Of a DNA stretch of 64,000 bases, positions 33,854 through 62,399 are shown in pieces. The notes beneath the pieces were generated by a model that saw only the letters and a program-made list of their open reading frames with translations, made no database searches and had not been told where the DNA came from. Location: contig OZ024754.1 of assembly GCA_964016885.1 (NCBI GenBank), positions 25,358,001 to 25,422,000 on the forward strand. Reading direction: 5' to 3'. The stretch is from Eledone cirrhosa (lineage: Eukaryota). Both the position numbers and the translations under genes were made by a program. How positions within the stretch are numbered: the stretch's first letter is position 1; each line of letters begins with the position of its first letter.

Positions 33854-33944
<91 letters not shown>

Positions 33945-34484
33945 GCTACTGTACGTCTGTATGCATATATGTATGTACGTATACATACATACTTACATTT
34001 AAGTAAGTGCCGTACTAAGAGTGAGAAAGGAAATTTCATTTCATTCTATTGCATTTTATCGTTTTCGGTGCGCCTGGCCGACTGAACTCATTCGATATGC
34101 AAATTAGGCTGCTCATCCGTTAATTTTCATAAGGAAAGTATATACTTTCGAACGTTCAACTATCTGGCAGAAGGGTATACGGTGCTGACGATAGCTAACA
34201 AGCTTGAAACTAGTATATCGTTCCTGTGTCTGTGTTGAACAAAAAGGTGACGTGGTTGCCTTAACACCGTACGGCATAAATCAGGCCGTCCGTTTCTTTA
34301 CAAACGGACGAAGCGAATATTATAATAAATGTTCGCTAAACTGATACGTACATATATATAGATGTGTGCCTGTATGTATATATATATATATAACGAAGGA
34401 AATGTGGTAAGGAACCAGGTGGACCGTAACGCACCAAAGTACTCAATACTTAGGGTAGTAGAGTGGGTAATAGGAACAAGTAAG

Positions 34485-34578
34485 ACCCCGACGGGTGAGC
34501 TCAAGCCGTTTCGGCGGCTAATTCTGGACTGAATGAAAATTTATTCTGGTATTTAAATAGCCGAGCTTATCAAGGGGT
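34485..34578 (-). ncRNA. Type I hammerhead ribozyme (U3-A8 core variant) in the terminal pLTR of PLE family A
   Basis: The reverse complement reads ACCCC-TTGATAA-G...C-GAAA-CGGCTTGAGCTCACCCG-TC-GGGGT, with one mismatch in helix III. Confidence 0.75.
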
Positions 34579-35745
34579 AATTCCATATATGCTCAAAGAG
34601 ATAATCACCAGGATTGGTCACATTACAAGTTAGTAGTAAATTTGTGATGGCAAATTGGTGGGGGAAGGGGTAGCTAAACCTGCTGGTAGGAGAAAATGTA
34701 GAGGGGGTGGAGTAGACCTATTCATGCGTTGGTAGTGCCGGCTACAGCTGGGCGTGAGGTCAAAGAGGATACTGGGGAGGGGGGAGTCGAAACGGTAAGT
34801 AGAACAATGAAGGGTAAAACTATAAAAAGTACTGAGAGAGAAAAAAAAAGCAAAGTCTGGTTACTAAGACTTAAGTCTCTCTCTATTGCTAGGCTAAAGA
34901 AATACATAAATAAATAAATAAACAAATAAGTGAATAAAAGAATAGACAAATAAATTTTAAAAAAATATATATAATGAAGAATAAAAAAAAATAATAAATA
35001 ATAATAAAAATAAACTAGGTGGGACGGAAATACATGGACCCTTATACGAGGTATAAGTGCGTGTATCGTACGGTGACGGGTCAACAAAGGGGAGCCAATA
35101 TACTAAAGAGACTACCACGAAATAATAAAGGTTTCTGCGCCAATCACAGGGCCAGCAACCACCCAGTGCAAGAAAGTAAACTAGTACGAGAATATAATTC
35201 AGGGTTCCGCAAAAAAATACTAGTGCTAACTCTAAGGTTACCGCCACGAAACAAAAAGTCTTATACAAGCTACATGAAAGATGGTACGAAGTAAAAGTAA
35301 AGAACGGAAAATTAATACAGAAACAATCCCCCCCCTCCCCCCAAAAAGGAAAAAGAAGAAAGAAATACTGGATAAACGAGAAATTAAAGCAAAGATGCCA
35401 CTAAGAAATATAGAAGGCACGGAAAAAAGGAACAGCGGTCGGAGAAGGGGGCAAGTATCCGAAGTCTAACACCTCTGCTATAAAAAGCGGAGTCAGCCAA
35501 ATCTATCATAGAATAGGGGAGGGCGTGGGGTGCTGAAGCTACAAGGGACCGAGGGGCTACCTCGGGTGGGCGAGAAAAAGACGACGACAAAGAAAAGGAA
35601 CTGGGGTAGAAGGACTAGGGAGGGATGGGGGAAGGAGGAAATATAGAGGAAGCGATAAAAGAATGTAAAAGAAGATCTTACGTCTCCATTGGCAAGCAGG
35701 GGTTACCCATTACAAAATAGGCAAGTGGGGTGTTATAGCCCTAGT

Positions 35746-37889
35746 CTACCCCTCCCTCCGGTCATTATGGGGTTTGAGAGCGAGGTAAGTCCTACGTAAT
35801 CGGTGTTTACATACAACAACCAGTTCATCTTTCTTGTTTAGGAGTTGGTCCGTCGAAAACAACATTTGTAAAGTTTCCTCCGAGCATAAATTGCACGGAC
35901 GGCGTCCTCCCGTGTAAGAGTTGGCTCTGGACAGTAATTTCCAAGTGAGATCATAGTTGATGTTGTTGTCCTTGAGGTCCCTTTTGTGGCCCGAAAGTGT
36001 AGTGGCGTGACGCCGGGCCGGGTTTCGGAAGGTATGTCTGTGTTGGTATAGCCGGGTCTTGAAGTCACATGCGGTTAATCCTATATAAGCTTTGTTGGAG
36101 GTGTCCGTGCTCACGTTGCACTGGTAGATCACATTACGGTCTCTGCATCTGTTGTCGAGGGGGTAACTGGATCTATCAGGACAGTTGCACCTCCTGGTCG
36201 GCTCTCCACTGCTATTTAGGTTGTTTCTTCCATAGGGGTTGAGGTTTTTGTTGTTGGAGGAGACGATGTTTTGTGCGAAGTTAGGTGTAGTGTTGTAAGA
36301 GAGTTTGATGGTATTTTTGTTAATTATATTGTGGTAGCGGTGTTGTGGTGGGAAGTGTTTTTCAATGAGCCTAAAGAAAATTTTCCCGATGGGAGTTGTC
36401 ACCTCGGCGTTGTGGGGAGGATTGAACCATGTTACATTGCGTGAGCGGCGGTGTCGCCTGCTGGTTCCGCTAATGGGAGCTGGACAGTAGGATATTTCCT
36501 CCCGGAAACCACTCCGCTTGAGGGCCTGGTTGTAGTAAGGCGCATGTTCATCGAATATCTTCTCATTAGCCGACAAACGGGATATGCGGAGGGAGATGTT
36601 TTTGACCAGGTTGTTGGTGATGTTCCTAGGATGGTTAGATCGGCGGTGGATGTAGTGCAGGTTGTCATTGGGTTTCCTGTATGGGTAGTACAGGTCATTA
36701 TTCAGATCGAGGGTAACGTCCAGGAAATTAACTCGGGTCAGGGACGTTTGTAGGGTTTATTTTAAATCCCCAGTCGCGGAAGAAGCTGATTAATTGTTTA
36801 TGGACCCGATATGTACTACTGGGGTTGTACCCTTTAAGGGTAAGGAGCCCATCATCACGGTACAATCCACCACCGAAAGCAGGAAACATATCGGTGAGTT
36901 TGGCTATTAGGAATAATCCTATAATATCTGTGACCTCCGCCGAATCCGTAGCGCCCATGCTGACGTCGAAGGGTGAGTCGGGAGCTCTTTTTATCCATTT
37001 GGAGTTGTCAAAGAGTAAGACTGTCTTCCTGGCGTGGAGGATGATTTTCCTTTCCTGGTCGGTGATGGGCACAAGTGTTTCGGCGAAGTCCAAGGCGGCA
37101 GTAAGTAGCGGTAAGGTGATTGAAGCATAGTAGCTCTCTATGTCGAACTAGATAAATTTAGTGTCTCGTTTATCCTCCATATTGCTGAACCATGAGATAA
37201 CTTCCTAGGCTAAGTCGGGCGTGTTGCTTGACTTTTGGTATCATGCGGTCTAGGATTTTTTTGCTGATTCTCCCGATGTCGGACTTCGTTGGGTTTATAA
37301 GCCTGATAGATGGTTTACGGTCGAAATCGGATTTGTGGTCCTTCAGTCTGAAGTAGGGTGTCCGCGGGTCTAGGGGTTCGGTGCGGTCGGCGACCCCGAG
37401 GCTGGAGGTAATTTGTTGTCCATCTCGATTAATGTCCTCGATGCATGAGTGGTTAGCCTTTTTATAGGTGGAGTTTAGTCTGCTCCTGATCAGTGTATGG
37501 TATCTGTCGGGGTTGACAAATTATAGGTTCCCAGTTTTATCCGAATGCACCATGATGTCATTGGTGTTATCATAATCTGTTAAGTTGCTACGGAGTTTTT
37601 GTAGGAATCGGTTGTGTCTGGGTTTGAATTTAAGGTTCTTGACCAGTTGGAAGACGTCATTCTCGAAGGGTGAGAGCAAAGGGTTCGGGGGGGGGGGATT
37701 TGTAGGTAATAAATCCGAATCTCTCCTTGGTACCGTAGTCCTGATTGTCGCAAAATCTGTCGTAGAAAAAAGTTCTCCATCTAAGTCTTTTCGCAAATAG
37801 ATCGATTTTTTGCGTGAGCATCCGAAGGTAAAGTTTTTTCGGTGGGATTGGGATGTTCTTGGTAGAGAAGTCGTGTTGTGTTTTCGCAT
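35746..37889 (-). pseudogene. PLE family A RT + GIY-YIG endonuclease, disrupted
   Basis: Fragments contain SMGA, GLYRDDGL, WFNPP and VIYQC...YIG. Relative to the + strand copy it has a frameshift at ~36755, a TAG in IQFD at ~37148, a 14-bp deletion at ~37205, a shared TAA at 37521 and frameshifts near the N-terminus. Confidence 0.92.
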
Positions 37890-38074
37890 GGTGCGGGTGA
37901 AAGAAATTGAGCTTAGCGGAAAAGTCTGGATACGGCGTGGTAGGGTCGGAAAGTGCTCTACTACGGGGATAGGAGCTAGATAACGAAGGAAATGTGGTAA
38001 GGAACCAGGTGGACCGTAACGCACCAAAGTAATCAATACTTAGGGTAGTAGAGTGGGTAATAAGAACAAGTAAG

Positions 38075-38145
38075 ACCTCGACGGCTGATTCTGGACTGAA
38101 TGAAAATTTATTCTGGTATTTAATTAGCCGAGCTTATCAAGGGGT
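38075..38145 (-). ncRNA. Inactivated copy of the family A hammerhead (23-nt deletion removing GAAA)
   Basis: ACGGCTG|ATTCTGGAC here versus ACGGCTGAGCTCAAGCCGTTTCGACGGCTAATTCTGGAC at ~41650. Length is 71 nt versus 94 nt. Confidence 0.75.
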
Positions 38146-39312
38146 AATTCCATATATGGTCAAAGAGATAATCACCAGGATTGGTCACATCACAAGTTAG
38201 TAGTAAATCTGTGATGGCAAATTGGTGGAGGAAGGGGTAGCTAAACCTGCCGGTAGGACAAAAAGGGAGAAGGGGTGGAGTAGACCTATTCATGCGTTGG
38301 TAGTGCCGGCTACAGCTGGGCGTGAGGTCAAAGAGGATACTGGGGAGGGGGGAGTCGAAACGGTAAGTAGAACAATGAAGGGTAAAACTATAAAAAGTAC
38401 TGAGAGAGAAAATAAAATAAGCAAAGTCTGGTTACTAAGACTTAAGTCTCTCTCTATTGCTAGGCTAAAGAAATGCATAAATAAATAAATAAACAAATAA
38501 GTGAATAAAAGAATAGACAAATAAATTAAAAAAAATATATATATAATGAAGAATAAAAAAAAAAAATAAATAATAATAAAAATAAACTAGGTGGGACGGA
38601 AATAAAGGGACCCTTATACGAAGTATAAGTGCGTGTATAGTACGGTGACGGGTCAACAAAGGGGGGCCAAAATACTAAAGAGACTACCACGAAATAATAA
38701 AGGTTTCTACCCCAATCACAGGGACAGCAACCACCCAGTGCAAGAAAGTAAACTAGTACGAGAATATAATTCAGGGTCCCGCAAAAAAATACTAGTGCTA
38801 ACTCTAAGGTTACCGCCACGAAACAAAAAGTCTTATACAAGCTACATGAAAGATCGTACGAAGTAAAGAACGGAAAATTAACACAGAAACAGCCCCCCCC
38901 CCCCAAATAAAAAGGGAAAAAGAAGAAGGAAATACTGGATAAACGAGAAATTAAAGCAAAGATGCCACTAAGAAATATAGAAGGCACGGAAAAAAGGGAC
39001 AGCGGTCGGAGAAGGGGGCAAGTATCCGAAGTCTAGCACCTCTGCTATAAAAAGCGGAGTCAGCCAAATCTATCATAGAATAGGGGAGGGCGTGGGGTGC
39101 TGAAGCTACAAGGGACCGAGGGGCTACCTCGGGTGGGCGAGAAAAAGACGACGACAAAGAAAAGGAACTGGGGTAGAAGGACTAGGGAGGGATGGGGGAA
39201 GGAGGAAATATAGAGGAAGCGATAAAAGAATGTAAAAGAAGATCTTACGTCTCCATTGGCAAGCAGGGGTTACCCATTACAAAATAGGCAAGTGGGGTGT
39301 TATAGCCCTAGT

Positions 39313-41457
39313 CTACCCCTCCCCCCGGTCATTATGGGGTTTGAGAGCGAGGTAAGTCCTACGTAATCGGTGTTTACATACAACAACCAGTTCATCTTTC
39401 TTGTTTAGGAGTTGGTCCGTCGAAAACAACATTTGTAAAGTTTCCTCCGAGCATAAATTGCACGGACGGCGTCCTCCCGTGTAAGAGTTGGCTCTGGACA
39501 GTAATTTCCAAGTGAGATCATAGTTGATGTTGTTGTCCTTGAGGTCCCTTTTGTGGCCCGAAAGTGTAGTGGCGTGACGCCGGGCCGGGTTTCGGAAGGT
39601 ATGTCTGTGTTGGTATAGCCGGGTCTTGAAGTCACATGCGGTTAATCCTATATAAGCTTTGTTGGAGGTGTCCGTGCTCACGTTGCACTGGTAGATCACA
39701 TTACGGTCTCTGCATCTGTTGTCGAGGGGGTAACTGGATCTATCAGGACAGTTGCACCTCCTGGTCGGCTCTCCACTGCTATTTAGGTTGTTTCTTCCAT
39801 AGGGGTTGAGGTTTTTGTTGTTGGAGGAGACGATGTTTTGTGCGAAGTTAGGTGTAGTGTTGTAAGAGAGTTTGATGGTATTTTTGTTAATTATATTGTG
39901 GTAGCGGTGTTGTGGTGGGAAGTGTTTTTCAATGAGCCTAAAGAAAATTTTCCCGATGGGAGTTGTCACCTCGGCGTTGTGGGGAGGATTGAACCATGTT
40001 ACATTGCGTGAGCGGCGGTGTCGCCTGCTGGTTCCGCTAATGGGAGCTGGACAGTAGGATATTTCCTCCCGGAAACCACTCCGCTTGAGGGCCTGGTTGT
40101 AGTAAGGCGCATGTTCATCGAATATCTTCTCATTAGCCGACAAACGGGATATGCGGAGGGAGATGTTTTTGACCAGGTTGTTGGTGATGTTCCTAGGATG
40201 GTTAGATCGGCGGTGGATGTAGTGCAGGTTGTCATTGGGTTTCCTGTATGGGTAGTACAGGTCATTATTCAGATCGAGGGTAACGTCCAGGAAATTAACT
40301 CGGGTCAGGGACGTTTGTAGGGTTTATTTTAAATCCCCAGTCGCGGAAGAAGCTGATTAATTGTTTATGGACCCGATATGTACTACTGGGGTTGTACCCT
40401 TTAAGGGTAAGGAGCCCATCATCACGGTACAATCCACCACCGAAAGCAGGAAACATATCGGTGAGTTTGGCTATTAGGAATAATCCTATAATATCTGTGA
40501 CCTCCGCCGAATCCGTAGCGCCCATGCTGACGTCGAAGGGTGAGTCGGGAGCTCTTTTTATCCATTTGGAGTTGTCAAAGAGTAAGACTGTCTTCCTGGC
40601 GTGGAGGATGATTTTCCTTTCCTGGTCGGTGATGGGCACAAGTGTTTCGGCGAAGTCCAAGGCGGCAGTAAGTAGCGGTAAGGTGATTGAAGCATAGTAG
40701 CTCTCTATGTCGAACTAGATAAATTTAGTGTCTCGTTTATCCTCCATATTGCTGAACCATGAGATAACTTCCTAGGCTAAGTCGGGCGTGTTGCTTGACT
40801 TTTGGTATCATGCGGTCTAGGATTTTTTTGCTGATTCTCCCGATGTCGGACTTCGTTGGGTTTATAAGCCTGATAGATGGTTTACGGTCGAAATCGGATT
40901 TGTGGTCCTTCAGTCTGAAGTAGGGTGTCCGCGGGTCTAGGGGTTCGGTGCGGTCGGCGACCCCGAGGCTGGAGGTAATTTGTTGTCCATCTCGATTAAT
41001 GTCCTCGATGCATGAGTGGTTAGCCTTTTTATAGGTGGAGTTTAGGCTGCTCCTGATCAGTGTATGGTATCTGTCGGGGTTGACAAATTATAGGTTCCCA
41101 GTTTTATCCGAATGCACCATGATGTCATTGGTGTTATCATAATCTGTTAAGTTGCTACGGAGTTTTTGTGGGAATCGGTTGTGTCTGGGTTTGAATTTAA
41201 GGTTCTTGACCAGTTGGAAGACGTCATTCTCGAAGGGTGAGAGCAAAGGGTTCGGGGGGGGGGGGATTTGTAAGTAATAAATCCGAATCTCTCCTTGGTA
41301 CCGAAGTCCTGATTGTCGCAAAATCTGTCGTAGAAAAAAGTTCTCCATCTAAGTCTTTTCGCAAATAGATCGATTTTTTGCGTGAGCATCCGAAGGTAAA
41401 GTTTTTTCGGTGGGATTGGGATGTTCTTGGTAGAGAAGTCGTGTTGTGTTTTCGCAT
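39313..41457 (-). pseudogene. PLE family A RT + GIY-YIG endonuclease, disrupted (second tandem copy)
   Basis: Carries the same motifs and the same lesions as the 35746-37889 copy. Confidence 0.92.
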
Positions 41458-41642
41458 GGTGCGGGTGAAAGAAATTGAGCTTAGCGGAAAAGTCTGGATA
41501 CGGCGTGGTAGGGTCGGAAAGTGCTCTACTACGGGGATAGGAGCTAGATAACGAAGGAAATGTGGTAAGGAACCAGGTGGACCGTAACGCACCAAAGTAA
41601 TCAATACTTAGGGTAGTAGAGTGGGTAATAAGAACAAGTAAG

Positions 41643-41736
41643 ACCTCGACGGCTGAGCTCAAGCCGTTTCGACGGCTAATTCTGGACTGAATGAAAATTT
41701 ATTCTGGTATTTAATTAGCCGAGCTTATCAAGGGGT
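41643..41736 (-). ncRNA. Type I hammerhead ribozyme (U3-A8 variant), family A pLTR
   Basis: Core and helices II and III are intact. Helix I ACCCC/GAGGT has one mismatch. Confidence 0.68.
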
Positions 41737-42902
41737 AATTCCATATATGGTCAAAGAGATAATCACCAGGATTGGTCACATCACAAGTTAGTAGTAAATC
41801 TGTGATGGCAAATTGGTGGAGGAAGGGGTAGCTAAACCTGCCGGTAGGACAAAAAGGGAGAAGGGGTGGAGTAGACTTATTCATGCGTTGGTAGTGCCGG
41901 CTACAGCTGGGCGTGAGGTCAAAGAGGATACTGGGGAGGGGGGAGTCGAAACGGTAAGTAGAACAATGAAGGGTAAAACTATAAAAAGTACTGAGAGAGA
42001 AAAAAAAATAAGCAAAGTCTGGTTACTAAGACTTAAGTCTCTCTCTATTGCTAGGCTAAAGAAATGCATAAATAAATAAATAAACAAATAAGTGAATAAA
42101 AGAATAGACAAATAAATTTAAAAAAATATATATATAATGAAGAATAAAAAAAAAAAATAAATAATAATAAAAATAAACTAGGTGGGACGGAAATAAAGGG
42201 ACCCTTATACGAAGTATAAGTGCGTGTATCGTACGGTGACGGGTCAACAAAGGGGGGCCAAAATACTAAAGAGACTACCACGAAATAATAAAGGTTTCTA
42301 CCCCAATCACAGGGACAGCAACCACCCAGTGCAAGAAAGTAAACTAGTACGAGAATATAATTCAGGGTCCCGCAAAAAAATACTAGTGCTAACTCTAAGG
42401 TTACCGCCACGAAACAAAAAGTCTTATACAAGCTACATGAAAGATCGTACGAAGTAAAGAACGGAAAATTAACACAGAACCCCCCCCCCCCCCCCAATAA
42501 AAATGGAAAAAGAAGAAGGAAATACTGGATAAACGAGAAATTAAAGCAAAGATGCCACTAAGAAATATAGAAGGCACGGAAAAAAGGGACAACTGTCGGA
42601 GAAGGGGGCAAGTATACGAAGTCTAACACCTCTGCTATAAAAAGCGGAGTCAGCCAAATCTATCATAGAATAGGGGAGGGGGTGGGGTGCTGAAGATACA
42701 AGGGACCGAGGGGCTACCTCGGGTGGGCGAGAAAAAGACGACGACAAAGAAAAGGAACTGGGGTAGAAGGACTAGGGAGGGATGGGGGAAGGAGGAAATA
42801 TAGAGGAAGCGATAAAAGAATGTAAAAGAAGATCTTACGTCTCCATTGGCAAGCAGGGGTTACCCATTACAAAATAGGCAAGTGGGGTGTTATAGCCCTA
42901 AT

Positions 42903-43116
42903 CTACCCCCCCCCGGGTCATTATGGGGTTTGAGGGCGAGGTAAGTCCTACGTAATCGGTGTTTACATGCAGTAACCAGTTCATCTTTCTTGTTTAGGAG
43001 TTGGTCCGTCGAAAACAACATTTGTAAAGTTTCCTCCGAGCATAAATTGCACGGACGGCGTCCTCCCGTGTAAGAGTTGGCTCTGGACAGTAATTTCCAA
43101 GTGAGATCATAGTTGA
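42903..43116 (-). pseudogene. 3' fragment of the family A ORF (end of the endonuclease domain) at the inversion junction
   Basis: Matches the region encoding ...YDLTWKLLSRANSYTGGRRPCNLC...CKHRLRR* and is cut at 43116. Confidence 0.88.
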
Positions 43117-43767
43117 GTTAGCACTAGTATTTTTTTGCGGGACCCTGAATTATATTCTCGTACTAGTTTACTTTCTTGCACTGGGTGGTTGCTGTCCCTG
43201 TGATTGGGGTAGAAACCTTTATTATTTCGTGGTAGTCTCTTTAGTATTTTGGCCCCCCTTTGTTGACCCGTCACCGTACGATACACGCACTTATACCTCG
43301 TATAAGAGTCCCTTTATTTCCGTCCCACCTAGTTTATTTTTATTATTATTATTTATTTTTTTATTCTTCATTATATATATATATTTTTATTTATTTATCT
43401 ATTCTTTTATTCACTTATTTGTTTATTTATTTATTTATGTATTTCTTTAGCCTAGCAATAGAGAGAGACTTAAGTCTTAGTAACCAGACTTTGCTTTTTT
43501 TTTCTCTCTCAGTACTTTTTATAGTTTTTACCCTTCATTGTTCTACTTACCGTTTCGACTCCCCCCTCCCCAGTATCCTCTTTGACCTCACGCCCAGCTG
43601 TAGCCGGCACTACCAACGCATGAATAGGTCTACTCCACCCCTACTCCCTTTTTCTCCTACCGGCAGGTTTAGCTACCCCTTCCCCCACCAATTTGCCATC
43701 ACAGATTTACTACTAACTTGTAATGTGACCAATCCTGGTGATTATCTCTTTGAGCATATATGGAATT

Positions 43768-43861
43768 ACCCCTTGATAAGCTCGGCTATTTAAATACCAG
43801 AATACATTTTCATTCAGTCCAGAATTAGCCGCCGAAACGGCTTGAGCTCAGCCGTCGGGGT
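43768..43861 (+). ncRNA. Type I hammerhead ribozyme, U3-A8 covariant core, best-preserved family A copy
   Basis: ACCCC-TTGATAA(43773-79)-G..CGGCTA..loop..TAGCCG..C-GAAA(43834-37)-CGGCT TGAGCTC AGCCG-TC(43856)-GGGGT. Predicted cleavage is after GUC. Confidence 0.82.
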
Positions 43862-44046
43862 CTTTCTTGTTCCTATTACCCACTCTACTACCCTAAGTAT
43901 TGAGTACTTTGGTGCGTTATGGTCCACCTGGTTCCTTACCACATTTCCTTCGTTATCTAGCTCCTATCCCCGTAGTAGAGCACTTTCCGACCCTACCACG
44001 CCGTATCCAGACTTTTCCGCTAAGCTCAATTTCTTTCACCCGCACC

Positions 44047-46198
44047 ATGCGAAAACACAAGATCGACTTCTCTACCAAGAACATCCCAATCCCACCGAAA
44101 AAACTTTACCTTCGGATGCTCCCGCAAAAAATCTATCTATTTGCGAAAAGACTTAGATGGAGAACTTTTTTCTACGACAGATTTTGCGACAATCAGGACT
44201 TCGGTACCAAGGAGAGATTCGGATTTATTACCTACAAATCTCCCCCCCCCGAACCCTTTGCTCTCACCCTTCGAAAATGACCTCTTCCAACTGGTCAATA
44301 ACCTTAAATTCAAACCCAGACACAACCGATTCCTACAAAAACTCCGTAGCAACTTAACAGAGTATGATAACACCAATGACATCATGGTGCATTCGGATAA
44401 AACTGGGAACCTATAATTTGTCAACCCCGACAGATGCCATACACTGATCAGGAGCAGACTAAACTCCACCTATAAAACCGCTAACCACTCATGCATCGAG
44501 GACATTAATCGAGATGGACAACAAATTACCTCCAGCCTCGGGGTCGCCGACCGCACCGAACCCCTAGACCCGCGGACACCCTACTTCAGACTGAAGGACC
44601 ACAAATCCGATTTCGACCGTAAACCATCTATCAGGCTTATAAACCCAACGAAGTCCGACATAGGGAGAATCAGCAAAAAAATCCTAGACAGCGTGATACC
44701 AAAAGTCAAGCAACACGCCCGACTTAGCCTATGGATCAACACCCAGGAAGTTATCTCATGGTTCAGCAATATGGAGGATAAACGAGACACTAAATTTATC
44801 CAGTTCGACATAGAGAGCTACTATGCTTCAATCACCTTACCGCTACTTACTGCCGCCTTGGACTTCGCCGAAGCACTTGTGCCCATCACCGACCAGGAAA
44901 GGAAAATCATCCTCCACGCCAGGAAGACAGTCTTACTCTTTGACAACTCCAAATGGATAAAAAGAGCTCCCGACTCACCCTTCGACGTCAGCATGGGCGC
45001 TACGGATTCGGCGGAGGTCACAGATATTATAGGATTATTCCTTATAGCCAAACTCACCGATGTGTTTCCTGCTTTCGGTGGTGGATTGTACCGTGATGAT
45101 GGGCTCCTTACCCTTAAAGGGTACAACCCCAGTAGTACAGATCGGGTCCGTAAACAATTAATCAGCTTCTTCCGCGACTGGGGATTTAAAATAACCCTAC
45201 AAACGTCCCTGACCCGAGTTAATTTCCTGGACGTTACCCTCGATCTGAATAATGACCTGTACTACCCATACAGGAAACCCAATGACAACCTGCACTACAT
45301 CCACCACCGATCTAACCATCCTAGGAACATCACCAACAACCTGGTCAAAAACATCTCCCTCCGCATATCCCGTTTGTCAGCTAATGAGAAGATATTCGAT
45401 GAACATGCGCCTTACTACAACCAGGCCCTCAAGCGGAGTGGTTTCCGGGAGGAAATATCCTACTGTCCAGCTCCCATTAGCGGAACCAGCAGGCGACACC
45501 GCCGCTCACGCAATGTAACATGGTTCAATCCTCCCCACAACGCCGAGGTGACAACTCCCATCGGGAAAATTTTCTTTAGGCTCATTGAAAAACACTTCCC
45601 ACCACAACACCGCTACCACAACATAAATAACAAAAATACCATCTCTTACAGCACTACACCTAACTTCGCACAAAACATCGTCTCCTCCAACAACAAAAAA
45701 CTCAACCCCGATGGAAGAAACAACCTAAATAGCAGTGGAGAGCCGACCAGGAGGTGCAACTGTCCTGATAGATCCAGTTGCCCCATCGAAACCAGATGCA
45801 GAGACCGTGATGTGATCTACCAGTGCAACGTGAGCACGGACACCTCCAACAAAGCTTATATAGGATTAACCGCATGGGACTTCAAGACCCGGCTATACCA
45901 ACACAGACATACCTTCCGAAACCCGGCCCGGCGTCACGCCACTACACTTTCGGGTCACATATGGGATCTCAAGGACAACAACATCAACTATGATCTCACT
46001 TGGAAATTACTGTCCAGAGCCAACTCTTACACGGGAGGACGCCGTCCGTGCAATTTATGCTCGGAGGAAACTTTACAAATGCTGTTTTCGACGGACCAAC
46101 TCCTAAACAAGAAAGATGAACTGGTTACTGCATGTAAACACCGATTACGTAGGACTTACCTCGCCCTCAAACCCCATAATGACCGGGGGGGGGGCTAG
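44047..46198 (+). pseudogene. PLE family A polyprotein (RT + C-terminal GIY-YIG), near-intact; probably Hydra-clade-like
   Basis: Starts MRKHKIDFSTKNIPIP...RLRWRTFF, has a -1 shift at the poly-C run (~44250) and an in-frame TAA after DKTGNL (44414-16). It is then open to 46198 with FDIESYYASI, SMGA, YRDD, FLDV, WFNPP, CNC-x5-CP, VIY..YIG, CNLC and CKH. The clade call is from recalled motifs only. Confidence 0.93.
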
Positions 46199-47135
46199 AC
46201 TAGGACTATAACACCCCACTTGCCTATTTTGTAATGGGTAACCCCTGCTTGCCAATGGAGACGTAAGATCTTCTTTTACATTCTTTTATCGCTTCCTCTA
46301 TATTTCCTCCTTCCCCCATCCCTCCCTAGTCCTTCTACCCCAGTTCCTTTTCTTTGTCGTCGTCTTTTTCTCGCCCACCCGAGGTAGCCCCTCGGTCCCT
46401 TGTAGCTTCAGCACCCCACGCCCTCCCCTATTCTATGATAGATTTGGCTGACTCCGCTTTTTATAGCAGAGGTGTTAGACTTCGGATACTTGCCCCCTTC
46501 TCCGACCGCTGTTCCTTTTTTCCGTGCCTTCTATATTTCCTAGTGGCATATTTTTTTAAAATTTATTTGTCTATTCTTTTATTCACTTATTTGTTTATTT
46601 ATTTATTTATGTATTTCTTTAGCCTAGTAATAGAGAGAGACTTAAGTCTTAGTAACCAGACTTTGCTTTTTTTTTTCTCTCTCAGTACTTTTTATAGTTT
46701 TACCCTTCATTGTTCTACTTACCGTTTCGACTCCGCCCCCTCCCCAGTATCCTCTTTGACCTCACGCCCAGCTGTAGCCGGCACTACCAACGCATGAATA
46801 GGTCTACTCCACCCCCTCTACCTATTTCTCCTACCGGCAGGTTTAGCTACCCCTTCCCCCACCAATTTGCCATCACAGATTTACTACTAACTTGTAATGT
46901 GACCAATCCTGGTGATTATCTCTTTGACCATATATGGAATTACCCCTTGATAAGCTCGGCTATTTAAATACCAGAATAAATTTTCATTCAGTCCAGAATT
47001 AGCCCGTAAAAGTGGGGGGTAGGTGTTATCTGGTGTTAGAACTGGTTTTGTGTGTGTATGTGTGAGAGAGAATAAGTGGAGGTGTAAGCGTGTGTGTGTG
47101 GGGGGGGGGGTGTAAATATGGGGCTAGAGGCCCTA

Positions 47136-48407
47136 TCAGGTTATAAATTGGGTGTTGAGCTCTAGTCTATTATTGATTGGTGGAAGTGTTTTATCTATAA
47201 TAAGTGCTTCCTTAATTCTAAGATTGCCGAGGTTTCTTTCCTTAGTTTCTATCCTAACTGTTATGTTTTTATCGGTGTTTTTGCATTTAACTAGGTGTTT
47301 CTTAAATGAGGAAGCGTTAGTATTGAGGTGTTCTTTTATTCTTATGTGGAGTGGTCTGGTGGTGCTACCTACGTAGAAATTGTTGCATTTGTCACACTCT
47401 AGTCTGTATACTACGTAAGCCTGGTGGCATAGGTCTGTGTCGTTGATGGGGCAGTTGGCTAGTCTGCAGCAGTTGTCATGTCTGGTGGAGTGTCTCTTGG
47501 CCAGCCGTCCGCGCAGAGAAGGACCCGAGTGGGCCAGTTGGATATCCAGTCCCTCTCGTCTGATGGCTCTGCGGATGGCTGTTGTTGTTTCTTCACTGAA
47601 GTGTGGGAGCTTCAGGAAGCAAGTGTTAGTGCCTCGGGTGTGGTTTCCTCTGTTCTTTCTGGCACGGTTTGTGGTGGATGTCGTGTATCCGTTCAGTTTG
47701 AGTACTTCCAGGAAATGTGTGGTGTGTGTGTCTCGGTCTCTGGCGTCGGTGCATTTGTTCTTGATACGTGCCAGTTCGTTCTTTATGTATCCGAACTTGG
47801 CACCGAGTGGGAGGGCCGATCTGAAATGTACGAACAGGTCCCTGCTGGCGGATTTTTTATAGAAGCAGGTGTGGATGTTGCCTTCCTCTGTTACCCTGAG
47901 TTGGAAGTCCAGTAGGGATAGGGATCCGCGGTCATCGGGGTATTCCATGCTGAACTTTATACTGGCGTCCATGCTGGAGAATGTTGTGTATATTTTCTCT
48001 GCCTCCTCACGGGATGATGTAAGGATGAGTATGTCATCTACATATCGGGTGAAGAAGGTATGGGAATGGCAGGTGTTGAGGGCTCGGCATTCTAGCTGGT
48101 TCATGTAGGTGATGGCCAGCAGGCCAGAAAGGCTGGATCCCATGGGTAATCCTGTTGTCTGTCTGTATGTGTGGTGGTGGAAGGTGAAGTACGTGTTGTC
48201 TACTGTGAAGGACAAAAGCTGGTGTATGTCCGTCGGGTGGAGGCCGTAGCAGTGGATGTTCTCTGCGACCACGCAGTCCGTCAATAAATCGACAGCTGGG
48301 TGAGTGGGGACTGTAGTGTAGAGGGAGACAACGTCGAGGCTAAAAGCGTATTTATTTAGTTTAAGTTGTTCTGGCTGGAGTTGGTGTAGTCTACGTATAA
48401 CTTCCAG
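47136..48407 (-). CDS. PLE family B RT + GIY-YIG, 5'-truncated but uninterrupted reading frame (possibly Nematis-like)
   Basis: The frame is open upstream of the listed ORF (LEVIRR...SLDVVSLYT). Motifs include GLPMGSSLS, RYVDDIL, LLDF, a Cys-rich linker and VVYRLECDKC..YVGSTTR..RIKEH..H (CCHH). Confidence 0.9.
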   Translation of the reverse strand: MEVIRRLHQLQPEQLKLNKYAFSLDVVSLYTTVPTHPAVDLLTDCVVAENIHCYGLHPTDIHQLLSFTVDNTYFTFHHHTYRQTTGLPMGSSLSGLLAITYMNQLECRALNTCHSHTFFTRYVDDILILTSSREEAEKIYTTFSSMDASIKFSMEYPDDRGSLSLLDFQLRVTEEGNIHTCFYKKSASRDLFVHFRSALPLGAKFGYIKNELARIKNKCTDARDRDTHTTHFLEVLKLNGYTTSTTNRARKNRGNHTRGTNTCFLKLPHFSEETTTAIRRAIRREGLDIQLAHSGPSLRGRLAKRHSTRHDNCCRLANCPINDTDLCHQAYVVYRLECDKCNNFYVGSTTRPLHIRIKEHLNTNASSFKKHLVKCKNTDKNITVRIETKERNLGNLRIKEALIIDKTLPPINNRLELNTQFIT

Positions 48408-48455
48408 CTTTTTGCTCTTAAAGGGAGACTTCCAGCTTTTTCCTCTTAAAGGGAG
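48400..48455. repeat. 28-bp tandem duplication at the 5' truncation point of family B
   Basis: ACTTCCAGCTTTTTSCTCTTAAAGGGAG occurs twice. Confidence 0.9.
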
Positions 48456-48577
48456 ACTACTCTTTATCCACCTAATTTTAATTCTTTGATATTAGAGTTA
48501 GAACAGATACTCTATACTATTTCCGGTCAGCATGGCTTGGCTAGAGATTTAAGACGCTGGTTTGAGACCTTTATTTC

Positions 48578-48612
48578 CCTCCGAAGAAGAGATATTATCT
48601 CGAAAATTAAGG
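48578..48612 (+). ncRNA. Degenerate minimal hammerhead-like motif in an orphan pLTR-like fragment
   Basis: CCT-CCGAAGA-A-GAGAT ATT ATCTC-GAAA-AT-TA-AGG. It has a U4C core change and only a 3-bp helix I. Confidence 0.4.
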
Positions 48613-48726
48613 ACATTTAAATAAATTCAAGGTGAAAGACGAATTCTCAACAATATCTTTTACTATTGCATTCTCTTTTCTATGTCCATACCTGCATTGT
48701 TTTGGGCTTATTACACATATTCAAAC

Positions 48727-48730
<4 letters not shown>

Positions 48731-48805
<75 letters not shown>

Positions 48806-48833
48806 CATATATATATGTACAATATATATATAT
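48731..48833. repeat. Interrupted (TA)n microsatellite flanking PLE family C
   Basis: Directly visible. Confidence 0.95.
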
Positions 48834-48834
48834 G

Positions 48835-50706
48835 TACAATTAAAGAGGCTGATAAAGGGAGTACAGTAGTCCTAATGGAGACAGAATTCTATATCAACTT
48901 AGCGCTCTCCACTTTGGAAAACGAAACATACTACGAAAAGGCTGAACACTGCAATCAAAAGAAAATTATGAGAAACCTAAAAACTCTAATCAACCATTAC
49001 AAAGAAGGACTCACTAACAAGGAATTCAGCTTCATCACAGACTTTTCTACGGTATCCCTAAAGTACATAAAACCGAATCAATAAGTAAGGCATGCAAGGA
49101 AGCCACAGACATAGTCATCAATGTCCCCTCACCCAATGATCTCAAATTAAGACCTATAATAGCAGGCCCCGCTTGCGAAACGCACCGTCTTAGCAACTTC
49201 ATTGATATCCTTCTCAAACCCTTCCTCAAGCACATCAAAAGCTATATAAGGGACGACCTAGATATGCTCAATCACCTCCCTAATATGCCACTTTCTGAAC
49301 AAACCCTACTAGTGACGTTCGATGTAGTCAACCTATACTCCAACATCCCCCACAACCTAGGAATAGAAGCTATCCAATTCTGGCTGGATAATTTCCACAA
49401 TGAACTCCCACAACGCATCAAAAAAGAATTCGTGATAGAGGGACTCAAATTTATCTTGGAGAACAATTACTTCGTTTTCAATAACAAACCCTACAGGCAG
49501 AAATCTGGGACCGCTATGGGAACGAAACCAGCCCCCACTTATGCCAACCTAGTCATGGGATACCTGGAAATCACCCTCTACACTAAAGTCCTAAACAAAT
49601 TTGGAAACACCCCCCACTTACACATTGAAAGGAACTGGAAGCGATATCTAGATGATTGATTCATCCTTTGGCACGAAAACATCGAAAAACTTAATGAATT
49701 TCACACCCTTATAAATGGGCTCAACACAAATATTAACTTCACGATGGAATACAGCCATCAACAACTCCCCTTCCTCGACATCCTCATTAAGATCCATAAC
49801 AAAAAAATAGAAACAGACATATACTACAAGCCCACAGACTCCAAGCAATATCTCCCCTTCAACTCTTGCCACCCTAGACACGTTAAAATTAATATTCCCT
49901 ACAACTTAGCCAAGATAATCTGTACTATAGTCTCCAATAAAAACATCTGCTACTTACGGCTACAAGAACTAAAGGACACACTCATAGGCAGGGACTACCC
50001 TGCATCACTAATTGACAATGGAATCCAACGTGCCCTAAAACTCAGTACCCAGGACCTTAGACACCCTAAAGTAAATCAACCAAAACTAAAAGCTCTTCCA
50101 TACATCTCCACACACAACCTCCTCAACAATGAGGCCTTTGACACCATCCCCCAGAACATCCCTGTATTGAAAAAGGACCATAGAATGATCCAAATTCTAC
50201 GAACAAACGATATCATAAAGAGCAAAAGACAATCCAAGTCAATGAAAAACATCTTAACACATGCCAAAGTACTGCCAACCACAACAACGAAACCCACAGT
50301 AAAAAAATGCGATAGACCCAACTGTGGAATTTGCATCAACCTAATAGAGGGTCCGGAATTCTATTTCAAAGATGGACAACGTTTTACAGTAAAACACAAT
50401 TTCACATGTGCATCGGAAATACTAATATATGTATTAACTTGTTCAGGTTGTCGAGAACAATACATAGGCCAGACCAAACACAGCCTCCGCCAACGCATGA
50501 CTGTCCATAGATCCCAAATCAAAATACGGAAATACAGGAAAATACCACTGAGTGAACACATTGATACCTGTGCCGCCCAAAATCATCCCAACTTCAGAAT
50601 CTTTCCCCTCTACAAATTTAAAGATAATGCCACCCACACCCAGCGCATCAGCAAGGAATCTTACTTCATTAACAAATACGGACCCCGTCTAAACACTTCT
50701 CCCTAA
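48835..50706 (+). pseudogene. PLE family C RT + GIY-YIG, 5'-truncated and disrupted (Neptune-like)
   Basis: Motifs are [49 protein letters not shown], a CDRPNCGIC linker and LIYVLTCSGC..YIGQT. There is a frameshift/deletion at ~49045 and an in-frame TGA at 49657-59. Confidence 0.92.
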
Positions 50707-50846
50707 GACGAACCCACAACATACACACGTCAACATACATACCTACATCAGCACACATCTCTACCCACATATAAACACAATGACATACGTAAACACACAT
50801 GCTCTATGGTGCAACACAAAAAAATATATGTGCATATATATGTGTA

Positions 50847-50852
<6 letters not shown>

Positions 50853-50920
<68 letters not shown>
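50853..50920. repeat. (TA)n microsatellite after the family C 3' UTR
   Basis: Directly visible. Confidence 0.95.
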
Positions 50921-50924
<4 letters not shown>

Positions 50925-51069
50925 ATATATGTGTGTGTATATATATATAGTGAATATCATTTCATACCTTTTATTGTTAAGATTTTTGATGTTCTATTAA
51001 GAGAACCGATTTTACTGAAAAAATCGAATAATGTACACCATTTTACCAGTGGGAAAAAAATACTGGTCC

Positions 51070-51150
51070 ACCCACACACAAACACACACACGCACACACA
51101 TATATATACACACACACATACACACGCGTACATCAACATACAAAGAGACT

Positions 51151-51227
<77 letters not shown>

Positions 51228-51412
51228 ACACACACACACACCCACCCCCACACACACACACACACACACACACGCACTTCTCCGTATAAGACAAAAGCTG
51301 AAAAATATCTTTTGACATGCTAAAATACCCACCATTGCTTTCAGACACATTCATACTGACCATCCCTGCCACCACAAATTACTCTGCTTTACACACACAC
51401 ACACACACACAC
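51070..51412. repeat. (CA)n microsatellite cluster
   Basis: Long CA runs at ~51153-51272 and ~51390-51412. Confidence 0.95.
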
Positions 51413-52224
51413 AGAGCCACTTTTTTAACATAAAAACAGTCTTGGCGCATAATCAATTTTTTACATTCACATGACCTCTACCGACCAATCAAAATTGTTT
51501 TGACCACAAGAACTTTTGCAAATTGGAGCCACTTTTTTAACATAAAAACAGGTAGAATTCCCAAAACTAATCAGATCAGAGCAAACAGCACGGACACTCT
51601 ATCTCAAAATTATTTTTGAAAAGCATTAAGAAATGCGCAACCGGTAAAAACTTAAAAACTTAAAACCACAACTGAATACTAACCCATACAATCACTAATA
51701 CTCACAATTCCTAATTAAACCATTTTTCAACTGTGAACAATTTGTCAGCATTTTCTATTCCGTTTACCAATATATATATATATATATATATATACATACA
51801 GTCACACATATATATATATTACGTATCAGTTTAGCGAACATTGATTATAATGCTCGCTTTGTCCATTTGTAAACAAACGGACAGCCTGGTTATGCCGTAC
51901 GGTGTTAAGGCAACCACGTCACCTTTTTGTTCAACACCGACACAGGAACGATGTACTAGTTTCAAGCTTGTTAGATATCATCAGCACCGTATACCCTTCT
52001 GCCAGATGGTTGAACGTTCGAAAGTATATACTTTCCTTATGAAAATTAACGGCTGAGCAGACTAATTTGCATATCGAGTGAGTTCAGTCGGCCAGGCGCA
52101 CCGAAAACGATAAAATGGAATAGAATGAAATGAAATTTCATTTCTCACTCTTAGTACGGCACTTACTTAAACGTAAGTATGTATGTATACGTAAATACAT
52201 ATATTCATACAGACGTACATTAGC

Positions 52225-52305
<81 letters not shown>

Positions 52306-53190
52306 CAGGCACACATATATATATGTACGTATCAGTTTAGCAAACATTTATTATAATGCTCGCTTTGTCCGTTTGTAAACAAACGGACAGCCTGATTTAT
52401 GCCGTACGGTGTTAAGCCAACCACGTCACCTTTTTGTTCAACACTGAAACAGGAACGATGTACTAGTTTCAAGTTTGTTAGCTATCGTCAGCACCGTATA
52501 CCCTTCTGCCAGATCGTTGAACGTTCGAAAGTATATACTTTCCTTATGAAAATTAACGGCTGAGCAGCCTAATTTGCATATCGAGTGAGTTCAGTCGGCC
52601 AGGTGCACCGAAAATGATAAAATGGAACAGAATGAAATGAAATTTCATTTCTCACTCTTAGTACGGCACTTACTTAAATGTAAGTATGTATGTATACGTA
52701 CATACATATATGCATACAGACGTACAGTAGCATGTATATATATATATATATATATATATACATAAAGGCACACATATATATATGTACGTATCAGTTTAGC
52801 GAACATTTATTATAATGCTCGCTTTGTCCGTTTGTAAACAAACGGACAGCCTGTTTTATGCCGTACGGTGTTAAGGCAACAACGTCACCTTTATGTTCAA
52901 CACTGACACAGGAACGATGTACTAGATTCAAGCTTGTTAGCTATCGTCAGCACCGTATACCCTTCTGCCAGATGGTTGAACGTTCGAAAGTATATACTTT
53001 CCTTATGAAAATTAACGGTTGAGCAGCCTAATTTGCATATCGAGTGAGTTCAGTCGGCCAGGCGCACGGAAAACGATAAAATGGAATAGAATGAAATGAA
53101 ATGAAATTTCTGACTCTTAGTACGGCACTTACTTAAATGTAAGTATGTATGTATACGTACATACATATATGCATACAGACGTACAGTAGC

Positions 53191-53269
<79 letters not shown>

Positions 53270-53311
53270 CAGGCACTCATATATATATATTACGTATCAG
53301 TTTAGCGAACA

Positions 53312-53402
53312 GTTTAGATGCAGGATATGGCAGCGATAATGAGGGACAGAGACCGCTGGAGAGAACTCGTCCATGGATCTCGGGAATTTTACCCGCCTTA
53401 GA
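53312..53402. other. 91-bp foreign, relatively GC-rich insert in right-array monomers (6 copies)
   Basis: GTTTAGATGCAGGATATGGC...CCCGCCTTAGA at 53312, 53991, 57070, 57747, 61785 and 62442. It is absent from the left array. Confidence 0.92.
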
Positions 53403-53556
53403 GATATATATATAGATATATACATACAGGCACACATATATATATGTACGTATCAGTTTAGCGAACATTTATTATAATGCTCGCTTTGTCCGTTTGTAAA
53501 CAAACGGTCAGCCTGATTTATGCCGTACGGTGTTAAGGCAACCACGTCACCTTTTT

Positions 53557-53643
53557 GTTCAACACTGACACAGGAACGATGTACTAGTTTCAAGCTTGTT
53601 AGCTATCGTCAGCACCGTATACCCTTCTGCCAGATGGTTGAAC
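53557..53643 (-). ncRNA. Type I hammerhead ribozyme, representative copy in the right array
   Basis: Reverse complement of the 5812-5898 motif, including the extended helix I. Confidence 0.8.
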
Positions 53644-53863
53644 GTTCGAAAGTATATACTTTCCTTATGAAAATTTACGGTTGAGCAGCTAATTTGCATA
53701 TCGAGTGAGTTCAGTCGGCCAGGCGCACGGAAAACGATAAAATGGAATAGAATGAAATGAAATGAAATTTCTGACTCTTAGTACGGCACTTACTTAAATG
53801 TAAGTATGTATGTATACGTACATACATATATGCATACAGACGTACAGTAGCATGTATATATAT

Positions 53864-53948
<85 letters not shown>

Positions 53949-54529
53949 CAGGCACACATATATATATATTACGTATCAGTTTAGCGAACAGTTTAGATGC
54001 AGGATATGGCAGCGATAATGAGGGACAGAGACCGCTGGAGAGAACTCGTCCATGGATCTCGGGAATTTTACCCGCCTTAGATATATATATATATATATAT
54101 ACATACAGGCACACATATATATATGTACGTATCAGTTTAGCGAACATTTATTATAATGCTCGCTCTGTCCGTTTGTAAACAAACGGACAGCCTGATTTAT
54201 GCCGTACGGTGTTAAGGCAACCACGTCACCTTTTTGTTCAACACTGACACAGGAACGATGTACTAGTTTCAAGCTTGTTAGCTATCGTCAGCACCGTATA
54301 CCCTTCTGCCAGATGGTTGAACGTTCGAAAGTATATACTTTCCTTATGAAAATTTTCGGTTGAGCAGCCTAATTTGCATATCGAGTGAGTTCAGTCGGCC
54401 AGGCGCACGGAAAACGATAAAATGGAATAGAATGAAATGAAATGAAATTTCTGACTCTCAGTACGGCACTCACTTAAATGTAAGTATGTATGTATACGTA
54501 CATACATATATGCATACAGACGTACAGTA

Positions 54530-54624
<95 letters not shown>

Positions 54625-55500
54625 CATACAGGCACACATATATATATATTACGTATCAGTTTAGCAAACATTTATTATAATGCTCGCTTTGTCCGTTTGT
54701 AAACAAACGGACAGACTGATTTATGCCGTACGGTGTTAAGCCAACCACGTCACCTTTTTGTTCAACACTGAAAAAGGAAAGATGTACTAGTTTCAAGTTT
54801 GTTAGCTATCGGCAGCACCGTATACCCTTCTGCCAGATCGTTGAACGTTCGAAAGTATATACTTTCCTTATGAAAATTAACGGCTGAGCAGCCTAATTTG
54901 CATATCGAGTGAGTTCAGTCGGCCAGGTGCACCGAAAATGATAAAATGGAACAGAATGAAATGAAATTTCATTTCTCACTCTTAGTACGGCACTTACTTA
55001 AATGTAAGTATGTATGTATACGTACATACATATATGCATACAGACGTACAGTAGCATGTATATATATATACATAAAGGCACACATATATATATGTACGTA
55101 TCAGTTTAGCGAACATTTATTATAATGCTCGCTTTGTCCGTTTGTAAACCAACGGACAGCCTTATTTATTCCGTACGGTGTTAAGGCAACAGCGTCACCT
55201 TTATGTTCAACACTGACACAGGAACGATGTACTAGTTTCAAGCTTGTTAGCTATCGTCAGCACCGTATACCCTTCTGCCAGATGGTTGAACGTTCGAAAG
55301 TATATACTTTCCTTATGAAAATTAAAGGTTGAGCAGCCTAATTTGCATATCGAGTGAGTTCAGTCGGCCAGGCGCACCGAAAACGATAAAATGGAATAGA
55401 ATGAAATGAAATGAAATTTTTGACTCTTAGTACGGCACTTACTTAAATGTAAGTATGTATGTATACGTACATACATATATACATACAGACGTACAGTAGC

Positions 55501-55605
<105 letters not shown>

Positions 55606-56031
55606 CAGTCACACATATATATATATTACGTATCAGTTTAGCGAACATTGATTATAATGCTCGCTTTGTCCATTTGTAAACAAACGGACAGCCTGGTTAT
55701 GCCGTACGGTGTTAAGGCAACCACGTCACCTTTTTGTTCAACACCGACACAGGAACGATGTACTAGTTTCAAGCTTGTTAGATATCATCAGCACCGTATA
55801 CCCTTCTGCCAGATGGTTGAACGTTCGAAAGTATATACTTTCCGTATGAAAATTAACGGCTGAGCAGACTAATTTGCATATCGAGTGAGTTCAGTCGGCC
55901 AGGCGCACCGAAAACGATAAAATGGAATAGAATGAAATGAAATGAAATTTCTCACTCTTAGTACGGCACTTACTTAAACGTAAGTATGTATGTATACGTA
56001 AATACATATATTCATACAGACGTACATTAGC

Positions 56032-56072
<41 letters not shown>

Positions 56073-56498
56073 CAGGCACACATATATATATGTACGTATC
56101 AGTTTAGCGAACATTTATTATAATGCTCGCTTTGTCCGTTTGTAAACAAACGGACTGCCTGATTTATGCCGTACGGTGTTAAGGCAACCACGTCACCTTT
56201 TTGTTCAACACTGACACAGGAACGATGTACTAGTTTCAAGCTTGTTAGCTATCGTCAGCACCGTATACCCTTCTGCCAGATGGTTGAACGTTCGAAAGTA
56301 TATACTTTCCTTATGAAAATTTACGGTTGAGCAGCCTAATTTGCATATCGAGTGAGTTCAGTCGGCCAGGCGCACGGAAAACGATAAAATGGAATAGAAT
56401 GAAATGAAATGAAATTTCTGACTCTTAGTACGGCACTTACTTAAATGTAAGTATGTATGTATACGTACATACATATATGCATACAGACGTACAGTAGC

Positions 56499-56567
<69 letters not shown>

Positions 56568-57611: not shown

Positions 57612-57704
<93 letters not shown>

Positions 57705-58287: not shown

Positions 58288-58386
<99 letters not shown>

Positions 58387-59266: not shown

Positions 59267-59339
<73 letters not shown>

Positions 59340-60215: not shown

Positions 60216-60314
<99 letters not shown>

Positions 60315-60740: not shown

Positions 60741-60781
<41 letters not shown>

Positions 60782-61207: not shown

Positions 61208-61282
<75 letters not shown>

Positions 61283-62326: not shown

Positions 62327-62399
<73 letters not shown>

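Follow-up and report, generated by a model that had tools for sequence, protein, structure and literature searches.

The stretch analysed here, called the window below, comprises 64,000 nucleotides (nt) of Eledone cirrhosa (contig OZ024754.1, here C14, positions 25358001-25422000), and families of elements were searched for in the same genome (3.0 Gb). The window holds two arrays of one satellite unit, placed on opposite strands and converging on an island of Penelope-like elements (PLEs). In both arrays the unit consists of a 434-nt core (reference 33943-34376), followed each time by a (TA)n tract of variable length. It carries a type I hammerhead motif, and self-cleavage of its transcripts is predicted. 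How this unit is copied into new sites, and why the two arrays stop where they do, is the subject of this work. The main features are given below, where RT stands for reverse transcriptase, ORF for open reading frame, UTR for untranslated region and pLTR for the pseudo-long terminal repeat of PLEs.

1323-34376, plus strand: left array of 434-nt hammerhead units, about 70 units, with a higher-order repeat of about 4.7 kb
33943-34376, plus strand: last left unit, defining core positions 1-434; the next unit, which carries the mobile 3' ends at core 59 and about 117, is missing here
34179-34221, plus strand: type I hammerhead motif of the last left unit, predicted cut after 34215
34377-34392: (TA)n inside the last left unit, directly adjoining the 3' end of PLE A
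34391-43116, minus strand: PLE A, two full tandem copies and a 5'-truncated third, with the long (tail) end of the family at 34391
43117-47004, plus strand: inverted arm of PLE A, with an ORF at 44417-46198 and a partial pLTR, cut 46 nt short of the family's short end
47004-47005: blunt joint between PLE A and the 3' UTR of PLE B, family ends absent on both sides, putative deletion
47005-48442, minus strand: main arm of PLE B with RT and GIY-YIG, the last 450-500 nt or so of the 3' UTR/pLTR missing
48443-48730, plus strand: inverted pLTR arm of PLE B with a minimal hammerhead motif, ending at the family's short end, at (TA)n
48840-51769, plus strand: PLE C, truncated on its 5' side at the DKG region; its long 3' UTR contains an internal (TA)n, and the family's short end lies at 51769
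51771-51794: (TA)n inside the first right unit, directly adjoining the 3' end of PLE C
51795-64000, minus strand: right array of 434-nt hammerhead units, continuing to window position ~84,900, with its own higher-order repeat of about 4.7 kb

The satellite unit and its hammerhead motif

The left array, on the plus strand, finishes at 34376 with ...GTGTGCCTGTATG, followed by (TA)8 at 34377-34392, and the right array, on the minus strand, finishes at 51795 with ...GTGTGACTGTATG, followed by (TA)12 at 51771-51794. An earlier note on this DNA had described both arrays as converging on the PLE island and stopping at (TA)n, and the coordinates 34376 and 51795 bear this out. The common form of the stops is ...CTGTATG(TA)n, with the tract facing the island on both sides. 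Their coincidence had also been pointed out. Although the geometry stands, a TA tract lies within every unit (127 tracts of at least 12 nt in the two arrays together), so that a shared stop point needs only some TA-specific intruder and no special cause, and the stops are family ends of PLE A and PLE C. Units of the left and right arrays are 0.935-0.956 identical, as against 0.931-0.956 within an array. The reading frames of the arrays are of low complexity only, and the unit is low in GC and has no protein coding, long terminal repeat (LTR), primer binding site or polypurine tract.

The hammerhead motif is composed of a helix I of 6 bp, a helix II of 4 bp, a palindromic minimal helix III and a GUA triplet; the minimal helix III form is described as active in the dimer (PMC4209133, in excerpt). 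The predicted cut of the unit is 161 nt before the TA tract, and that of PLE A 99 nt before its end, in agreement with the distances of about 150-170 and 100 nt proposed previously. A 34-nt pattern of the motif has 13,211 exact matches in the genome (reversed control: 0), and the core is intact in 80 of the 90 hammerhead-like motifs of the window. The unit, two of its sister families and a 310-nt repeat nearby supplied 12 distinct motifs; in these, 93.8% of the cells pair, 8 of the 12 stem pairs change on both sides, and the covariation score is reached by none of 500 shuffles.

Ends and insertion anatomy of the unit in the genome

The earlier note had suggested a search for dispersed copies flanked by (TA)n. 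Such copies were found, in the form of short tandems with variable 5' truncation, 5' inversions and TA flanks, and TA adjoins 115 of their 127 outer 3' ends. Two main sites, with typical positions at core 59 and about 117, take 110 of these 127 ends (48 at core 45-63 and 62 at 100-122), while 14 lie at the internal tract (420-434) and 3 elsewhere. Similar distributions were obtained for the 32 best-scoring dispersed loci (55 ends: 22 at core 49-60, 26 at 104-120, 6 at 430-434 and 1 elsewhere) and for loci taken in order along C1 (64 ends: 24 at the short site, 31 at the long site, 7 at the internal tract and 2 elsewhere, so that the main sites hold 55/64); the three sets overlap, and in the C1-ordered set some loci of diverged subfamilies under the identity filter (L257, L262, L273, L287, L300) gave no counted ends. 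The 3' ends read ...CATTTA and ...CATTTTA, the 5' ends are variable, and no poly(A) tail was seen at the unit ends in the dispersed loci inspected. The TA tract had previously been taken for the mobile 3' end of the unit; dispersed copies end instead 59 or about 117 nt beyond it. The tract is internal and carried along, and for this reason each insertion deposits new TA targets. This retains one half of the former idea that every insertion regenerates its own target: new TA is indeed deposited, but it is not rebuilt from the target.

Both ends are visible in 22 insertions with two outward-pointing ends. Seventeen of them have both ends at the main sites, and 15 of these 17 combine one short and one long end (p=0.001), a pairing that is the 'tail' signature of PLEs and is also present in PLE A, B and C. 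In the 32 loci, 23 of 24 strand switches within insertions are head-to-head and occur at variable internal positions; TA is missing from 18 of these 23, contrary to the suggestion that other strand switches might also fall at (TA)n. A count by eye over the first 100 matches listed for C1 showed, at distances up to 2.5 kb, 16 neighbours that diverge and 2 that converge. The convergent ones (L256, L257), like a third case (L296), end at the 59/117-type ends of the unit itself. Of the features by which a non-autonomous PLE would be recognised, partial tandems with an inverted, 5'-truncated arm and two alternative 3' ends, one per arm, are both present.

In nine young insertions the full units are separated by 0-2 nt, and in seven other insertions by 1-36 nt; between loci, representative units show a median difference of 28. 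The near identity would fit repeated copying of a single template, perhaps a circle made by the ribozyme, and it also fits a homogeneous source array or local duplication. At three loci (L016, L007, L025) repeated short pieces of the form (TA)n-core 1-59-(TA)n-core 1-59 are seen, as if cDNA begun at 59 could close on the internal TA and restart; nested short insertions could give the same picture.

The PLE island between the arrays

Comparison of the window with itself, together with family searches in the genome, resolved the island into what are likely three nested insertions of TA-targeting PLEs (A, B and C) and a likely deletion between 47004 and 47005. Each family has two alternative 3' ends, spaced by ~79 nt in A, 43 nt in B and 39 nt in C, and at 28 loci per family the ends lie at TA in 37/40 (A), 28/30 (B) and 40/42 (C) of the non-edge cases. 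The earlier note had both flanks of PLE C abutting (TA)n. The tract at 50834-50949 is instead internal to the 3' UTR of PLE C (in all C loci among those listed), and since the stretch 51600-51770 is carried by 30 of 30 PLE C loci, the element runs to 51769 and directly touches the TA of the right array. Entry into the internal tract of the unit was also observed elsewhere, for PLE A at L305 (on the same side as 34391) and L303, and for PLE C at L047.

At 47004/47005 the arm of PLE A lacks its last 46 nt and PLE B its whole pLTR end, and contigs from an outside sample break exactly at 47004 and at 47005, continuing as intact PLE A and intact PLE B; a deletion at this point would account for the joint. 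The convergence seen in the window is likely the ordinary nesting of TA-targeting elements followed by this probable deletion.

Judged by its motifs, PLE A would belong to the Hydra clade, whose members target TA (PMC8557442, section 11). It shares with them RWR (for RWK), DKT, a CxCX5C linker (CNCPDRSSC), a C-terminal GIY-YIG-type region, a pLTR hammerhead, insertion at TA and a tandem and inverted arrangement, so that all the features looked for (RWK-like and DKT motifs, linker, hammerhead, TA insertion) are present. It differs in its unit of ~3.6 kb, against <3 kb, and in the U3-A8 core of its hammerhead, a variant read by eye about 99 nt inside its 3' end; the clade call is from motifs. 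A Pfam search with the ORF of PLE A gave no match. In PLE C a degenerate hammerhead-like motif was read by eye near 51611-51652. Several PLE pLTR hammerheads of this genome (43768-43864, 51611-51652 and one at L004) have the U3-A8 pair instead of C3-G8, and that of PLE C also has GCAA in place of GAAA.

How the unit is likely copied

Direct observation covers the unit with its hammerhead motif and internal TA, its two fixed 3' ends, 5' inversions and TA flanks and, at both junctions, the family ends of PLEs. A unit that shows the two-start pattern of PLEs and encodes no protein points to a PLE enzyme acting in trans as the likely agent. The preferred explanation, to which we give a probability of roughly 0.8, is that this protein-less hammerhead repeat is copied into (TA)n by the RT and endonuclease (EN) of a PLE in trans, and that the arrays break off in the window where PLE A and PLE C have their standard 3' ends, these two elements having likely entered the TA tract of the unit. 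The earlier proposal of a non-autonomous unit moved by PLE RT/EN into (TA)n is retained in its substance, carried now by the insertion anatomy across the genome; the window stops, which had been offered as its evidence, are PLE ends. On good structural evidence the unit would be a non-LTR retrozyme, or non-autonomous PLE, hence an element of a known kind in which the signs of PLE-type priming are unusually clear.

The process could run as follows. Tandem transcripts would cleave themselves as dimeric hammerheads and might circularise, and a PLE RT/EN complex would nick (TA)n on both strands. Synthesis of cDNA would begin at two internal sites of the RNA, core 59 and ~117, giving two outward-pointing arms of which one bears a 58-nt tail, and repeated copying of one template would produce the short tandems. 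Two such copies would then have expanded into higher-order arrays by local unequal exchange. A TA tract of the left array would have received PLE A, and a TA tract of the right array PLE B together with PLE C, after which the deletion at 47004/47005 would have removed the intervening DNA, including the arrays' own ends. A PLE protein is known to cut and extend both strands of AT-rich DNA, and cDNA synthesis from two internal RNA sites explains the PLE tail (PMC11167929, in excerpt).

Several observations weigh against this explanation or parts of it. The covariation set was chosen by the hammerhead pattern and represents only three or four lineages; Rfam gave no hammerhead at the gathering score (only HH9, E=3.7), and single-strand folding of the unit monomer gave no hammerhead fold (z -0.22 and 0.48). 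Helix II is closed by U.U and not by the usual G10.1-C11.1 (PMC4209133, in excerpt). In a comparison of 34 PLE UTR stretches with the unit no similarity rose above shuffled sequence, the best score being matched by 4 of 100 shuffles, and no autonomous PLE with a unit-like pLTR or 3' tail, as the earlier note had hoped for, was found among the families sampled, which are fewer than the genome's full set of PLEs. For the deletion, a check over 46650-47400 in three DNA contig sets of one sample listed no contig bridging 47004/47005, a gap that proves nothing. Moreover, with 14 of 127 unit ends at the internal tract, a stop at 434 made by the unit itself is possible.

This last point is the basis of the alternative that survives best, in which the satellite itself made the stops 34376 and 51795: both would be its own ends, with priming inside its TA tract on TA that adjoins older PLE ends. 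Both arrays do end at the tract, but with 110 of 127 dispersed ends at 45-63 or 100-122, two unit-made ends would both fall at 434 by chance in only ~1.2% of cases. Unit-made ends would therefore seldom give the 434/434 geometry, which is what PLE entry into the internal tract typically produces. Since, in addition, TA-specific PLEs have their exact family ends at both junctions and convergent pairs elsewhere keep the 59/117 ends, we regard this alternative as unlikely.

It is quite improbable, in our estimate, that a circular RNA of the unit is copied in rolling-circle fashion by some other RT, such as that of a long interspersed nuclear element (LINE), TA being only where inserts survive. 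The near-identical units within insertions would suit repeated copying of one circle, the unit has no homology to PLEs, and LINEs and PLEs are both left open as helpers in PMC7229834 (in excerpt). Two fixed internal ends, one per inverted arm, nevertheless match the anatomy of PLEs in the same genome and the mechanism of PMC11167929 (in excerpt), and no poly(A) tail occurs at the ends inspected. A circular template is compatible with PLE priming, and the two explanations thus differ only in the enzyme.

The spread of a DNA-level element, either of Helitron/Helentron type or a plain satellite recombining in TA tracts, is very improbable and for dispersal largely refuted: the large higher-order arrays probably did grow by DNA-level duplication, which still explains their length, and the unit has a microsatellite and AT-rich palindromes, but its 5' truncation is variable, its internal head-to-head switches mostly (18/23) lack TA, its fixed 3' ends have no CTRR terminus or subterminal inverted repeats, and its hammerhead covaries. 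Helitrons and Helentrons are marked by a fixed 5' end and a CTRR 3' end with a hairpin or subterminal inverted repeats, and such termini, named earlier as evidence that would speak against PLE mobilisation, were not found at the unit ends ...CATTTA and ...CATTTTA.

Search for the helper PLE

The hunt for a partner covered the island, 175 loci with the unit masked, 30 GIY-YIG loci, 29 loci of a further PLE family (E) and 20 loci of sister families, and in none of these was a PLE pLTR similar to the unit met with. Against the PLE UTRs of the island the unit gave only TA-rich noise in a shuffle test, in line with the earlier statement that no direct similarity was seen. The 175 masked loci gave only sister families and the 310-nt hammerhead repeat, and an apparent motif match to family E was no better than shuffled sequence (25 of 100 as high).

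Chimeric insertions offer a different approach. In 245 loci, head-to-head joints within a family number 28 for the unit, 25 for A, 17 for C, 15 for B and 4 for E; between autonomous families there are none, and between the unit and an autonomous family there are three (A 2, E 1; Fisher p=0.036, a test that omits three joints of the unit with a sister family and three plus one within two other repeats). A targeted pattern of unit plus PLE A had 15 matches, namely 6 direct joints (one being L267 again), 7 joined by TA or separate and 2 not involving the unit; with L298, seven TA-free direct joints are obtained in all. L303 and L305 were dropped as chimeras, being insertions of PLE A in the internal tract with a deletion. 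Five TA-free head-to-head joints of unit and PLE A remain, of which four pair a long with a short end and three lie at loci holding units of the youngest subfamily. Applied to PLE C and to E, this pattern had 0 matches each, and PLE B with A yielded a single TA-separated one. Short arms are more frequent in PLE A, which makes the controls unequal.

The unit is also joined to two other families, at L028 and L296, which speaks against there being only one helper. Because of these joints, of the unequal controls and of target deletions that can mimic chimeras, PLE A is only a lead as helper. We tentatively put forward, as a doubtful but specific model, that PLE A helps without any shared sequence through a dimer holding two templates, one active site copying the hammerhead RNA, probably a circle, and the other the RNA of PLE A from its complementary start site; the internal (TA)n would then be a self-seeding target that feeds a community of TA-targeting PLEs. 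If this were true, chimeric head-to-head insertions would be a general way of naming the helper of any retrozyme. A 56-nt piece of the family E pLTR lies at the inversion joint of a unit insertion (L025, 1224-1279), which suggests a template switch.

Relation to known systems

Non-LTR retrozymes with PLEs as probable helpers are already in print (PMC7229834; bioRxiv 10.64898/2026.07.22.740005; PMC8969392), as are non-autonomous Chlamys elements (PMC8557442); the comparisons in this section draw on excerpts of these papers. Like the metazoan non-LTR retrozymes (PMC7229834; bioRxiv 10.64898/2026.07.22.740005), the unit is a low-GC tandem repeat with a type I hammerhead per repeat and no ORF, present from dimers to long multimers, dispersed and clustered, alongside PLEs. 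It stands at the long end of their size range (~450-530 nt with the tract) and differs in its internal variable (TA)n; its two-end/5'-inversion anatomy is not described in the passages and main text consulted for these two papers. The unit also lacks homology to PLE pLTRs, in contrast to 24 of 57 Xenopus retrozyme families (bioRxiv 10.64898/2026.07.22.740005), and whereas circular RNA is a feature of metazoan retrozymes, the unit is known here from DNA alone.

With non-autonomous Chlamys PLEs such as MRC1 (PMC8557442) the unit shares its protein-less, pLTR-like nature and its multicopy head-to-tail arrangement. The 3' ends of those elements are in general similar to an autonomous family, while the unit resembles none sampled and has a hammerhead of canonical type. 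A parallel in priming is Poseidon PAc of the anole (PMC11167929), in which RT can start at two internal sites, so that a tail is optional; as in the unit, the target is AT-rich and the hammerhead lies upstream of the starts. The start sites of PAc follow the ribozyme cut by ~85-125 nt and are part of the ORF, and those of the unit follow it by >220 nt, beyond the TA tract and in non-coding sequence.

How animal hammerhead repeats are copied is an open question, and the case for PLE helpers in print has been built on co-occurrence, on ribozymes in common and on pLTR homology. In this genome, copies by the thousand bear a PLE-priming fingerprint, in which each inverted arm uses one of two fixed start sites and insertion is at TA. 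Autonomous PLEs of the same genome follow the same design, and the pattern supplies exact RNA positions together with a candidate enzyme. The literature search, in excerpts, met no account of a retrozyme that forms chimeras with its helper, carries a target tract inside its unit or shows the two-end/inversion anatomy, which is not proof of their absence from print.

Sister families, array structure and the duplicate block

Sister families about 70-78% alike (L158, L200, L211; L207-L225) have the same layout of hammerhead, internal microsatellite and end region, the position of the internal TA tract being conserved. One of them has 1,863 search candidates, and its ribozyme stems are different but pair. 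A second hammerhead tandem repeat, of 310 nt and without a regular TA tract, occurs at L092 and L119 (C14 ~25.04 and 25.31 Mb) and is interleaved with unit dimers upstream of the window.

The long arrays with a 4.7-kb period probably grew later by DNA-level duplication. The repeat of the left array contains a fixed small internal inversion (core 10-134, TA, 433-303 reversed, 243-434; for example at 3714-4191) that has been amplified seven times. The higher-order repeat of the right array includes a 5'-truncated insert of another TA-associated element, a TA-terminated 90-nt 3' fragment with ~50 nt of the unit repeated alongside; copies lie at 53315-53422 and at five more places up to 62560, as well as at L071 and L219. 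The reading frame of this fragment presumably corresponds to the end of an RTE-type LINE ORF, which we take it to resemble. Positions 1-1322, before the left array, are an AT-rich, internally repetitive stretch that recurs many times upstream. Flanking sequences of SINE type seem octopod-like.

The whole block of AT-rich repeat, left array, island and right array is repeated 299.6 kb upstream (C14:25.03-25.13 against 25.33-25.44 Mb), with 99.8% identity over the island stretch compared. The duplicate, which may be real or an assembly artefact, has one copy of PLE A fewer and arrays of 19 and 10 kb, against 33 and 33 kb, and both copies of the block have a head-to-head switch where the right array ends on its far side. 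The last plus-strand arm of the duplicate block (L101, ~4400-4900) ends at TA and is followed by an integrase-like reading frame, which, judged by eye, is probably a fragment of an LTR retrotransposon.

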